NCBI GenBank assembly: GCA_963692865.2
Contig: OY843592.1
Location: 800,001 to 864,000 of the forward strand
DNA: 64,000 bases
Direction: 5' to 3'
Origin: a bacterium
Lineage (GTDB): Bacteria; UBA8248
Each line of letters starts with the position of its first letter. The stretch's first letter is position 1. The notes beneath the pieces were generated by a model. It did not search any database. It was given only the letters and a program-made list of their open reading frames with translations, and was not told the origin of the DNA. Positions 21,018 through 36,281 of this stretch are shown piece by piece. A program made the translations under genes and the position numbers.

Positions 21018-21087
21018 TCCTGAATCGGCCTTCGCACAAACCGCTTGGCCTCTGTCGGGCTTTCCCCTCGGGAAGCCCGACTCTCAC

Positions 21088-22889: not shown

Positions 22890-23085
22890 CTCCCCCCTTG
22901 AGGGTCTGGCTTCCCGAGGGGAAAGCCAGACGATGAGGCCGAGCCCTTGGGCGAAGGCCGATTCGGTGGGGGGACATGTCACGGGAAAGCTCCCCCCACC
23001 GAATCGCTTGCGGGCTTACGCCCTTACCTCGTCGACTCCCCCTCAAGGGGGGAGTGGTTGGTTGGCGTTCTGCAAGGGGGGAGTG
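22890..23085. repeat. Palindromic element bounded by CCCCCCTTGAGGG...CCCTCAAGGGGGGAG
   Basis: Related copies at ~10150, 33740-33908 plus 35378-35445 (IS-interrupted) and ~61414. Confidence 0.7.
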
Positions 23086-33339: not shown

Positions 33340-33700
33340 TCCATGAATCGAAGGGGCGGTTCGAGAACGGTCCCTGCAAAACCCGCAAACCCTACCAATT
33401 GCCGATATGCGCGCGGAGTAGGGACAACCCCTCCTCGGGGTTGTCCTGCCCCCGTGGTTGTCCCTTGCAGAACGCACCATCGGACAGGCACGGGGGCCTG
33501 TCCCTACAAACGAGAGAAGGTCTTGATCGTCATTCCGGCCTTGAGCCGGAATCGATTTGCGGGTGCGGGTGAATGAACGACGGCGTTTCAATTCCCGCCG
33601 ATGTGCGGGAATCCTGACGAAAGGCAAAAGACATAAAATGGATTCCGGCTCAAGGCCGGAATGACGGCAATCCTGGCAATCCAGGGTTTTCAACAGTTCC
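33340..33700. repeat. REP cluster (GTAGGGACA and GTCATTCCGGC types)
   Basis: gtagggacaacc...gcctgtccctac; gtcattccggccttgagccggaatc...ggattccggctcaaggccggaatgac. Confidence 0.7.
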
Positions 33701-34023
33701 TTGAGGGTTGCCGGCAACTGATGAAGAAGGAAGAATCATTCCCCCCTTGAGGGGGTCGGGCTTCCCGAGGGGAAAGCCCGACAGAGGCCGAGCGGTTTGT
33801 GCGAAGGCCGATGTGGTGGGGGACATACCACAGGGTAAAATCTCCCCCCACCAGTTCGCTTTCGGGCTTACGCCTTCAGCTCACTGTCGGCCTTCCCGAG
33901 GAGGAAAGATGGGGTAATCGGGTTGGTCTGCGAACTACCGCGTGTGGCGGATGTTCCTCTGCCTTATGATTCGAGGCGAGGCCGGGATGGTCCGGTCTCT
34001 ACGCGCCCGCAGGAGGAGCAGTC

Positions 34024-35064
34024 ATGAACTACTTTGCAGGACTCGACGTGTCGTTGGAGTGGACGAGTGTGTGCGTGGTGGACGCGGAGGGCGGGATCGT
34101 CCGGGAGGCGAAGGTCGCGAGCGAACCCGCGGCCCTCGTGGCGTTCTTCACCGGACTGGCCTTCGGCGTAACGCGCATCTGCCTGGAGGCGGGGCCGCTG
34201 TCACAGTGGCTCCATGACGGTCTGGCCGAGGCCGGGTTCCCGGTGGTTTGCGCCGAGACGCGGCAACTGAAGGCGGTGCTCTCGGCGACGGTGAACAAGA
34301 GCGACCGCGACGACGCGCGCGGCATCGCCCAGTTGGTTCGCGCGAACCTGATTCGCCCGGTGCACGTGAAGACGGTGTCGAGCCAGGAAAAACGCATGCT
34401 CCTCGCCAACCGCAGGTTCATGCTGAAGCAGTTGTGCGACGCCGAGGCCCACATCCGGGGCACGCTGCGCAACTTCGGGCTGAAGATGGGCAAGGTCACC
34501 CGTCGCGGTTTGGAGGCGCGTGTAGGGTGTCTGGTCGCGGAGCGCCCGGAGTTGGCGCGCCTGGTGGCGCCGATGCTGCGGGCTCGCTCTGCGCTGCTGG
34601 CGGAATACGTCCGGCTGCACAGGATGATGCTGGAGGCGGCGCGAGCCGATCCGGTCTGCCGGCGCCTGATGACGGTTCCCGGCGTGGGTCCGGTGACGGC
34701 GCTCACCTTCCGGGCGAGCGTCGACGTGCCATCGCGTTTTGCGCGCTCGCGCTCGGTGGGCGCGCACTTCGGGCTTGTGCCTCGCAAATGGCAATCCGGA
34801 GAGGTCGACCGCACGGGAAGCATCTCCAAATGCGGCGACGCGATGATGCGCGCGGCGCTCTACGAAGCCGCCAACGTCTTGCTCGGGCGCACGACGCGGT
34901 GGTCATGGCTGAAAGCCTGGGCGATGGGTGTGGCGAAGCGTCGCGGCAAGTCGCGCGCGAAGGTTGCGCTCGCCCGCCGGCTCGGCGTCATCATGCACCG
35001 CATGTGGATGGATGGCAGTGAGTTCCGCTGGAAGCGCGACGGCGCGGATGCTTCGGCTGCCTGA
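34024..35064 (+). CDS. IS110-family DEDD transposase/recombinase
   Basis: GLDVS, LEAG, KSDRDDA, VPGVG, GLVP..QSGE, ISKCGD; aggagg RBS. Confidence 0.95.
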   Translation: MNYFAGLDVSLEWTSVCVVDAEGGIVREAKVASEPAALVAFFTGLAFGVTRICLEAGPLSQWLHDGLAEAGFPVVCAETRQLKAVLSATVNKSDRDDARGIAQLVRANLIRPVHVKTVSSQEKRMLLANRRFMLKQLCDAEAHIRGTLRNFGLKMGKVTRRGLEARVGCLVAERPELARLVAPMLRARSALLAEYVRLHRMMLEAARADPVCRRLMTVPGVGPVTALTFRASVDVPSRFARSRSVGAHFGLVPRKWQSGEVDRTGSISKCGDAMMRAALYEAANVLLGRTTRWSWLKAWAMGVAKRRGKSRAKVALARRLGVIMHRMWMDGSEFRWKRDGADASAA

Positions 35065-35099
35065 GGTCGAGACACTGAAGAAGGAGGACCACAGACAAA

Positions 35100-35350
35100 C
35101 CCTGTAGCTTCCGCCTCGGCGGGGGATGCTCCCGTGGGGACGAGGGACGAAGTGAGTACGCTGTCGGCCTAGCCCCGCTGCGTCGGTGACGATGCGAGGG
35201 CGCAGGAAAGATTGTTCCACTTCGTTCTCCGATCCCATCCTGTTGACGGCCCCCGGCTCGGGAGTCGATCACGAAGAGAAGCGAGACCCCCATGGAGCGT
35301 CATCTGCAGCCAAAGGCGGAACAGGTCTGACAGAACCAGGGGAGAGGAAC
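35100..35350 (+). ncRNA. Predicted seekRNA/bridge RNA in the IS right non-coding region (ends approximate)
   Basis: Stem acgaagtg (35147-54)/cacttcgt (35218-25) encloses gtcggcct and aggaaag, which match the two target strands; cccatc and agagaag match the donor junction. Confidence 0.65.
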
Positions 35351-35492
35351 TTGACTTGCCCTACCCGATTAGAGAAGGCCGACCCTCAAGGGGGGAGTGA
35401 TTTCCACTCTCGTCGGAAGGCAAGAACCCTCAAGGGGGGAGTGAATTTCTTCTCTACTCGGTCGGGTTCGGCCCCCCACCCGGAGTGCGCCC

Positions 35493-36281
35493 GTGAGCGA
35501 TACGATGGATTTCGATGAGCGCGCCTCGCGCCAGGCCGAGGTCATGTACCTGACGCCGGACTTGACCGAGGTGAGACGCCGGACGATAGAGGCGCTCGGT
35601 CTCACCTCCGGCGCGCGCGTCCTGGACGTGGGTTCCGGCCCCGGCCTCTTCGCCGACGAGATAGCGCAGACGGTCGGCCCGACGGGTTGCGTGCGCGGGG
35701 TGGATATCAGCGAGTCGATGATCGGGCTCGCCCGGGCGCGATGCGCCGATAAGCCCTGGGTCGACTTTCAAATCGCCGACGCCGTATCACTTCCCTTCGA
35801 AGATGAGTATTTCGACGCCTGCGTGAGCGTGCAGACGCTCGAGTTCGTGGCTGACTTGGATGCGGCCTTGCGCGAGATGCACCGCGTATTGAAGCCCGGT
35901 GGACGACTCGCGGTGAGCGACGCCGACTGGGGCGCCACGTCGTGGCGCTGTGAGGATGCGGCGCTCTGCGAGCGGGTGATGGCCAGCTGGCTTGCGGGCT
36001 TCGCCCACCTGAGGCTGCCGCTCACGCTCAAGCCCGGGATCGAGGCGGCGGGCTTCGCCGATGTTTCCGCCCGCGCGATCCCCGTTCTCAACACCGCCTG
36101 CGAACCCGAGAGCTTCAGTTTTCAATTCATTCGTCAGGTTCAGGGCGTCGTCCCCGCCAGGACGGACCTGACGCAAGAGGAAGTAGACGCATGGGCGAGT
36201 GAATTGCGCGGCCTGGACGAGAGGGGCGCATATTTTTTCTCGCAGACGAGATATCTGTTCTCAGCCGATAAGCCGCGCTGA
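35493..36281 (+). CDS. Class I SAM-dependent methyltransferase (UbiE-like)
   Basis: VLDVGSGPG, LPFEDEYFD, RVLKPGG. Confidence 0.88.
   Translation: MSDTMDFDERASRQAEVMYLTPDLTEVRRRTIEALGLTSGARVLDVGSGPGLFADEIAQTVGPTGCVRGVDISESMIGLARARCADKPWVDFQIADAVSLPFEDEYFDACVSVQTLEFVADLDAALREMHRVLKPGGRLAVSDADWGATSWRCEDAALCERVMASWLAGFAHLRLPLTLKPGIEAAGFADVSARAIPVLNTACEPESFSFQFIRQVQGVVPARTDLTQEEVDAWASELRGLDERGAYFFSQTRYLFSADKPR

Follow-up and report, generated by a model that had tools for sequence, protein, structure and literature searches.

The window analysed here, a 64,000-nucleotide stretch of bacterial DNA (GTDB lineage Bacteria; UBA8248; GenBank assembly GCA_963692865.2, contig OY843592.1, positions 800,001 to 864,000 of the forward strand), carries what is very probably an intact insertion sequence (IS) of the IS1111 group of the IS110 family, RNA-guided to one hairpin variant of a repeat that resembles a miniature inverted-repeat transposable element (MITE). 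An earlier note had read this locus as an IS1111-type RNA-guided element, and the family profiles, inverted repeats, downstream noncoding region, transposase motif, and guide order all agree with that reading.

The IS spans window positions 33909 to 35377 on the plus strand and is 1469 bp in length, the AG core being counted once, on the right. The interval first assigned to it, 33886–35383, took in 23 nt (33886–33908) and 6 nt (35378–35383) of target flank. The left junction, with 33909 as the first base of the IS, reads ...gaggaggaaAG/ATGGGGTAAT (in fuller form ...cccgaggaggaaAG/ATGGGGTAATCGGGT), and the right junction, with 35377 as the last base, reads ...GATTAGAGAAG/gccgac (in fuller form ...ACCCGATTAGAGAAG/gccgaccctcaagg). 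These ends, ..AG/ATGGGGTA.. and ..TAGAGAAG/..., are common to the family. The subterminal inverted repeats are 14 nt long, stand 6 nt from each end, and are complementary at 12 of 14 positions; homologues have them as well, with all 14 positions complementary in locus L036. Noncoding DNA amounts to 313 nt downstream of the transposase gene versus 115 nt upstream. The target rebuilt by closing the element's flanks is real, as the orthologous locus of a genome of the same genus (L062) lacks the insertion and reads straight through as ...ctgtcggccttcccgaggaggaaaggccgaccctcaagg..., its unique right flank being the same. The orthologous site is also empty in a second genome (L063), where the hairpin is a variant, gtcggtc...gaccgac. 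Insertion is site- and orientation-specific and occurs without target duplication, as seen in the six copies of the genome and in the single AAG of the empty orthologous site. The core had been proposed to be AG or AAG, 2–3 nt long; the base preceding AG differs among homologues, and thus the shared core is AG and not AAG. Sequencing data (23 runs) were available as assembled contigs only, and four runs were examined, including X1, X4, and the RNA runs X22 and X23. One contig in DNA run X1 connects 33905 directly to 35375 and so omits 1469 bases, the joint having 3 ambiguous letters; as its shorter side is just 21 letters, this joint may stem from a different repeat unit or from an organism related to the host.

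The transposase has 346 amino acids, and its open reading frame is preceded, eight bases upstream, by AGGAGG. It matches PF01548 (DEDD_Tnp_IS110, E 7e-13), PF02371 (Transposase_20, E 3e-21), and the NCBIfam family NF033542, 'IS110 family RNA-guided transposase' (237 bits; cut-off 140). The best solved relatives are ISCro4 (9t56) and IS621 (8wt6; residues 174–335, E 3e-14). In the alignment to 9t56, the motifs LDVS/IDVS, LEA/MEA, KSDrdDA/KTDavDA, and SG/SG fall in register. We propose D8, E55, D94, D97, and S258 as the catalytic set by motif equivalence, S258-G259 lying in GLVPRKWQSG; the catalytic residues reported for IS621 are D11, E60, D102, D105, and S241 (PMC11208158). Membership criteria of the IS1111 group include subterminal inverted repeats of 7–17 bp, and its transposases are described as 330–350 amino acids long with a GL-P----S(T)G motif (the latter in PMC11187229). 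The length of the present protein lies within that range, and GLVPRKWQSG (residues 250–259) fits the motif. By its sequence, the element has every IS1111-group feature examined. The nearest named members found, the plasmid-borne IS5075 and IS4321, are distant, at ~26% identity over residues 50–323. A plasmid search for named close relatives returned matches at ~60% identity that are labelled merely with the generic 'IS110 family transposase'.

Four segments of the 3' noncoding region had been singled out as guides: gtcggcct (35163–35170), aggaaag (35204–35210), cccatc (35234–35239), and agagaag (35275–35281). All lie at exactly these positions, and each occurs once in the 286-nt region 35065–35350. 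In 20,000 dinucleotide-preserving shuffles of this region, single motifs arose in 0.7%, 4.5%, 7.7%, and 9.5% of cases; 7 shuffles contained at least three of them, and none contained the full set. The top-strand target guide lies 5' of the bottom-strand guide, and the two overlap at AG, as in IS1111 seekRNAs. The two bases that follow the bottom-strand target guide, AU at 35211–35212, open the conserved AUUGUUCC and are the same as those with which the left end of the element begins (AT); pairing after strand exchange and a scaffold role are not separable by covariation here, as both stretches are conserved family-wide. At the positions 3' of the top-strand guides that correspond to the IS621-type handshake, the AG following GUCGGCCU pairs with neither the target nor the left side of the donor.

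A consensus structure was predicted with RNAalifold from 14 nonredundant homologues, and consists of an outer stem, a target-arm stem, and an inner hairpin. The outer stem (P1, 35132–35139 with 35288–35295) corresponds to the enclosing 8-bp stem noticed earlier, and has 3 of its 8 pairs changed on both sides, with 98% of cells paired. The target-arm stem encloses both target guides and the inner hairpin; 3 of its 12 pairs are changed on both sides and 97% of cells are paired. Over all stems, 96.8% of cells are paired, versus 39–52% when the 3' partners are slid, and compensatory changes affect 7 of 29 pairs. The covariation score of 0.281 (0.203 in shuffles) was reached by 0 of 500 shuffles. 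The sizes of the target arm (83 nt) and of the whole RNA (164 nt) fit those published for IS1111 seekRNAs, given as 70–100 nt for the short form and 145–170 nt for the long form (PMC11187229). A UCUC/GAGA stem was considered as another way of closing the donor arm; it competes with pairing at the base of the target-arm stem and was not clearly better.

A one-genome-per-species scan yielded 52 loci, of which 41 were tabulated and 11 partial matches dropped (L023, L045, L049, and L052–L059); both element ends could be placed by conserved motifs in 28. The 3' regions have a conserved scaffold in common. Its 5' part consists of GGGACGAnGGAyGAGGUGAGUUCG, ~10 variable nt, an inner hairpin, GGCG, ~7 variable nt ending in AG, and AUUGUUCC; its 3' part consists of gaUCCCAUC, an inner stem, and AGAGAAGcgag. 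The variable stretches change from element to element along with the flanks. Bottom-strand guides and left flanks pair off as ACGGAAG with ttcACGGAAG (L009), AUGAGAG with tagATGAGAG (L011), UCAAAAAG with gtTCAAAAAG (L015), and CCAAUAG with gtgCCAATAG (L018). Top-strand guides and right flanks do so as AUCCAGCCU with gctggat (L014), ACCGUCCCU with ggacggt (L019), and UUCGAGUCU with actcgaa (L022). In the 14 loci whose guides were defined by position, matches to the element's own target average 6.64 nt for the top-strand guide and 5.36 nt for the bottom-strand guide, versus 3.30 and 2.41 nt for the targets of other elements, and 12 of these loci have guides that change along with the flanks. The observed guide-target total was reached by 0 of 100,000 permutations, as was that of an alignment-free test on 22 specificity groups. 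Related elements are treated as independent in these permutations, so the figures overstate the case; the guide-flank pattern is nonetheless visible locus by locus.

The same holds within the genus of the window, where 6 of 23 genomes have the element at 85–100% DNA identity. Elements 90–97% identical carry different guide-target pairs. Genome G013 has four copies with the guides AUGAGAG and CUGUCGGCUC; three of these are in a matching repeated site (exact or nearly so), and the fourth is in a tandem repeat, where each side has a single mismatch. This fourth copy (L071, G013:C2, ~559000) is at the edge of the array agccgag-agccgag-agccgag, which repeats its right-target sequence. Genome G014 has a further pair, AUGCGAG and CUUCCUGCCC. 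Insertions at sites unrelated to the guides had been named as the outcome that would speak against RNA guidance; the copies of the present genome, G013, and G014 match their own guides.

Table 1. Features of the IS, its predicted RNA, and its target in the window, followed by the insertion sites of the six copies in the genome (contig C1). Slashes mark insertion points.
Feature	Position	Strand	Basis or remarks
Left part of MITE-like host repeat	33737–33908	+	Same unit borders four of six copies on both sides, a fifth on the left only
Terminal inverted repeat of MITE-like unit	33737–33753		cattccccccttgaggg
First hairpin of unit	33755–33782		Unused variant
Left arm and loop of target hairpin	33886–33908		Core AG at 33907–33908
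Insertion sequence	33909–35377	+	Six 1469-bp copies 100% identical; orthologous empty site; joint in X1 DNA contig
Left terminal extension ATGGGG	33909–33914	+	Right side of donor (circle) junction; kept as ATGGGGTA in most homologues
Left subterminal inverted repeat TAATCGGGTTGGTC	33915–33928	+	12/14 complementary to 35358–35371
Transposase gene, 346 amino acids	34024–35064	+	PF01548 and PF02371; NF033542; motif alignment to ISCro4
Predicted long bridge/seekRNA, 164 nt, closed by outer stem P1	35132–35295	+	RNAalifold, 14 homologues
Predicted target-binding arm, 83 nt, 'short seekRNA' size	35145–35227	+	Stem 35145–35160 / 35213–35227
Putative target guide, top strand, GUCGGCCU	35163–35170	+	Complement of core AG and right target GCCGAC
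Putative target guide, bottom strand, AGGAAAG	35204–35210	+	Identical to left target plus core; conserved AUUGUUCC follows
Putative donor guide, top strand, UCCCAUC	35233–35239	+	Complement of G/ATGGGG with one G:U pair; family-conserved
Putative donor guide, bottom strand, AGAGAAG	35275–35281	+	Equals last 7 nt of element
TTGACT, −35-like hexamer, candidate half of junction promoter	35351–35356	+	21 nt from right end
Right subterminal inverted repeat GCCCTACCCGATTA	35358–35371	+	Pairs with 33915–33928
Right terminal extension GAGAAG, AG core at its end	35372–35377	+	Ends common to family
Right arm of target hairpin gccgac (35378–35383), then right terminal inverted repeat of unit cctcaaggggggagtga	35378–35400	+	
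Copies at hairpin	C1:11682, C1:833909 (window), C1:1780176		...gtcggccttcccgaggaggaaAG/IS/gccgaccctcaagg
Copy at hairpin	C1:1957424		Same hairpin, right side accgac
Copy with one cognate flank	C1:3895393		Cognate left flank (gagggaAG), right flank unrelated
Copy outside repeat	C1:1823985		AT-rich non-repeat DNA, aaccgaaagggaAG/IS/gtcgat

The six copies of the element in the genome are 100% identical over 1469 bp and are its sole IS110-family genes. The element is intact and, as far as its sequence indicates, has recently been active. Four copies share the same hairpin position and orientation in separate repeat units whose outer flanks differ. The copy at C1:1823985 is in the site aAGGGAAG/GTCGAT, in which the left side is one base off aggaaag and the right side has two C-to-T changes with respect to GCCGAC; both of these face G's of the guide, such that pairing would hold through G:T wobble. 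The comparison of copies proposed in the earlier note, carried out here within this genome and in another, thus finds sites that fit their own guides.

The MITE-like unit, which also resembles repetitive extragenic palindromic (REP) elements, is ~200 bp long and has terminal inverted repeats (CACTCCCCCCTTGAGGG and CCCTCAAGGGGGGAGTG) around two hairpins of the same sense; short forms have one hairpin between two terminal repeats. The unit also occurs at 21054–21081 and 22904–22931 of the window. Insertion of the family into extragenic palindromic repeats is reportedly long known, going by the titles of Tobes and Pareja 2006 and Choi et al. 2003, and IS621 too is said, in a reference title, to have a REP-type target. 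The target in the present genome is the right-hand hairpin of the two. A genome census found 364 matches to the 15-nt terminal repeat (at most 2 mismatches) and the loop motif CTTCCCGAGG at 101 sites. In a hand tally of these 101 sites, the left-hand variant (GAGGGGAAAG/CCCGAC or CCAGAC), which has one mismatch to each guide, accounts for ~60 sites, none of them occupied, and the cognate right-hand variant for ~15, of which 5 are occupied. The landing site is thus a rare variant inside an abundant repeat family: the repeat had been called abundant, which is true of the family, whereas the cognate variant is rare, with all of its best sites already occupied. Among the empty sites of the genome none is perfect, and the best carry one mismatch in the 29-nt hairpin. 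Three sites listed earlier as near-cognate and empty (21054–21081, 22904–22931, and 33755–33782) exist at these coordinates, but belong to the different variant (GGGAAAG/CCCGAC or CCAGAC) that is never used; each has one mismatch to each target guide, and the site at 21054 is in the opposite orientation.

Some further observations concern these repeats. A complete unit outside the window, at G000:C1:3606989–3607017 (L079), has the right hairpin GTCGGCCTTCCCGA-TTAGAGAAG-GCCGAC, whose loop contains the last 9 bases of the element, with the core, in place of GGAGGAAAG. The final 14 nt of the left target and the final 14 nt of the element, placed in register, agree at 10 positions, with CCCGA common to both, and the hairpin could be the scar of an imprecise excision or of a deletion between the two CCCGA. 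No second instance was found among 23 genomes of the genus. A second family of palindromic repeats (gtaggggccgcatatcatgcggccc ... gacatatatgtc) adjoins several units, namely in the right flanks of the copies at C1:1958892 and 1780176 and at C1:868940. A short repeat (ggattccggctcaaggccggaatgacggcaatcctggcaatccaggg) is located at 33640–33700 of the window, and the orthologous place in L063 has it with an altered loop.

These features suggest how the element would move. A DEDD/Ser recombinase would be loaded with a 164-nt RNA from the 3' noncoding region, closed by an outer stem and divided into one arm for the target and one for the donor. In the former, GUCGGCCU would pair with the top strand of AG plus GCCGAC, and AGGAAAG with the bottom strand opposite AGGAAAG; the donor arm would read the junction of the excised circle in a similar manner, with UCCCAUC for one side and AGAGAAG for the other. 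The element would then be inserted by recombination at the AG common to target and donor, in one orientation and without target duplication, between the loop and the right arm of the hairpin. We infer from the sequences compared that the RNA is produced and bound by the transposase, that a circular intermediate forms, that a promoter spans its junction, and that the donor arm has a role. As to the promoter, 24 of 30 loci (hand count) have TTGAC at a distance of 20–22 nt from their right end, and upon joining of the ends it would be placed 17–18 nt before GAAGAT, which consists of the last four and first two bases of the element; a promoter may thereby be completed. A junction promoter has been proposed for the family in the Discussion of PMC11187229. 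Three terminator-like sites were found, none placed to end the RNA. The unitig of the IS has a depth of 218.7 in X1 and 97.4 in X4, versus 30–52 for the unique right flank, a ratio that is not a copy number.

Support for a donor arm that reads the element's ends is thin. Most homologues have an internal xAGAGAAG ~95 nt before the terminal TAGAGAAG, and the top-strand donor segment is CCCCAUC in L010 and L011. Ends hardly vary in the family, so this donor-side agreement is mostly conservation and not covariation. Accordingly, an explanation to be taken seriously, if an unlikely one, is that the target arm alone is a guide and the protein recognizes the ends through the subterminal repeats, UCCCAUC and AGAGAAG being end-like conserved scaffold; in the account of PMC11187229, an 82-nt short seekRNA alone supported ISEc11 movement and a role for the long form is not established. 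Against this, changes at the right end are mirrored internally in L026 (TACAGAAG with ACAGAAG) and L036 (TAAAGAAG with AAAGAAG), the left-end segment follows in part (ATCCCG with GGAUC, and ATGAGG with CCUCAaC, respectively), the outer stem around both arms has compensatory changes, and IS1111-group loops complementary to target and donor are described in PMC11208160. Given near-invariant ends, two covarying lineages, and several mismatched loci, we consider it clearly better than even that the donor arm reads the element ends. Two other explanations concern the target. The shared site might be a copied site, with some copies being passengers in element-bearing repeat units that were moved or duplicated whole, and the copies at C1:11682, 1957424, and 1780176 do share an identical ~170 nt of repeat body on the left. 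Yet the flanks beyond the repeat unit differ on both sides, as expected of separate units; the window copy and C1:3895393 are in other unit subtypes, and no unit surrounds C1:1823985; two related genomes have the window's unit without an insertion; at C1:868910 and 3606989, units of this subtype lack the element; and targeting in G013 and G014 follows different guides. Passenger movement is therefore very improbable. That there is no RNA guide at all, with the protein reading the hairpin directly and the matches arising by chance or as captured target remnants, would be compatible with RNA-based recognition having been deduced from sequence and with unremarkable single-sequence folding. Guide-flank covariation disfavours it: guides change with flanks in 12 of 14 position-defined loci and across 22 specificities, elements of 90–97% identity carry different guide-target pairs, the four matches never arose together in shuffles, and NF033542 is a family of RNA-guided transposases. 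We give this explanation almost no credence.

Several results nevertheless weigh against an RNA-guided, two-armed element. Donor-arm covariation comes from two lineages only (L026 and L036), and in each of L014 and L035/L043/L051 the internal segment departs from the right end at one position. The flanks of L012 and L013, 2 of the 14 position-defined loci and both on short contigs of metagenome-assembled genomes, misfit their guides. L012 has guides as in L009 with other flanks, and in L013/L077 the left end is changed to ATGGGA (L013); such loci could be explained by off-target insertion, by decay of the copy, or by chimeric assembly at a repeat. Measured against the scaffold, the top-strand guide is in one register in the window element, L014, L019, and L022, and in another, 1 nt off, in L010 and L074. 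Compared with the window element (35161–35172), this guide lies one position further 3' with respect to the scaffold in L010, L011, and L070–L074; the last paired guide base there meets the core G and the next base is unpaired, whereas the window guide pairs with both core bases. The copy at C1:3895393 has a cognate left flank but a noncognate right one. Around this copy (C1:3895393–3896861, outside the window), a cognate unit stands on the left and unrelated cgcccctacggg... on the right, which suggests a deletion or rearrangement beside it; exchange of flanks with C1:1823985 by recombination was considered and rejected, as the swapped flanks rebuild no hairpin. Single-sequence folds of the noncoding region are no better than shuffles (z −0.84 and 0.05), and an Rfam scan (E≤1) of 33500–35800 gave no match in the noncoding region; its only two matches, to unrelated small RNA families and far below the gathering score, were both in the repeat unit. 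A consensus promoter scan of the linear sequence returned 0 sites. RNA runs X22 and X23 cover 34635–34904 of the gene and scraps of the repeat but nothing in 35132–35295; the likeness of 90–97% indicates that this cover probably comes from relatives. In the runs examined, no contig has joined element ends, these runs consisting of contigs only.

The mechanism was described in 2024, so the value of the element lies in being an example; what is new is this member and not the kind of system, and no new principle is involved. It offers a clean multicopy case from an uncultured lineage in which the guides, target, empty site, wobble off-target, and unused near-cognates are all readable from sequence. 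Close relatives with different guide-target pairs on a nearly constant scaffold could teach the pairing rules of the IS1111 group, including guide length, tolerance of G:U pairs, register, and the relevance of the donor arm, which are less worked out than for IS621. If true, the two-armed reading would give a role to the 'long seekRNA' left open in PMC11187229, and the elements of the genus would form a natural reprogramming series. In its fullest form, this reading holds jointly that the 164-nt RNA is a true two-armed IS1111-group bridge RNA, with a donor arm for reading the 6-nt terminal extensions that lie beyond the subterminal repeats; that elements 85–96% identical in DNA in one sponge-associated genus have been re-aimed at five targets or more through changes limited to ~17 guide positions, including a 1-nt register shift; and that every perfect rare-hairpin site is filled, with one possible excision scar. 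We hold this conjunction tentatively, at somewhat short of even.

RNA-guided targeting has been described for both groups of the family (PMC11187229 and PMC11208160), and the RNA is reported to lie downstream of the gene in the IS1111 group, being predicted there in 93% of IS1111 elements (PMC11208160). Among the closest known systems are ISEc11, ISKpn4, ISPa11, and ISPst6 as described by Siddiquee et al. 2024 (PMC11187229). These have a 330–350-amino acid transposase with the GL-P----SG motif, subterminal inverted repeats, short terminal extensions, a long downstream noncoding region, a stem-loop in which the match to the top strand stands 5' of that to the bottom strand and the two overlap at the insertion point, and natural reprogramming between close relatives. 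The present element is distant from them in sequence and its target is new. A second loop matching its own ends, with an outer stem around both arms, is seen here by comparison, whereas the role of the long RNA is left open in that account.

IS621 (Durrant et al. 2024, PMC11208160; Hiraizumi et al. 2024, PMC11208158) similarly has a DEDD and Ser recombinase and two loops that read both target and donor strands around a 2-nt core, with no target duplication. It is described as differing in having the RNA upstream of the gene, the reverse guide order, CT instead of AG as the core, and subterminal repeats of 2–3 bp, and its handshake positions beside the top-strand guides had no counterpart that we could find in the present element. 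Two elements of Pseudomonas putida, ISPpu9 and ISPpu10 (PMC12288879; an Extended Data legend of PMC11208160 names ISPpu10), likewise have multiple copies at one position of an extragenic palindromic repeat. According to PMC12288879, ISPpu9 inserts into such a repeat and also has an AG dinucleotide at both ends, but it belongs to the IS110 group, without subterminal repeats and with the RNA upstream. Compared with the repeat of ISPpu9 as described there, the present host repeat is a ~200-bp unit with terminal inverted repeats, of which only one rare hairpin variant is used.

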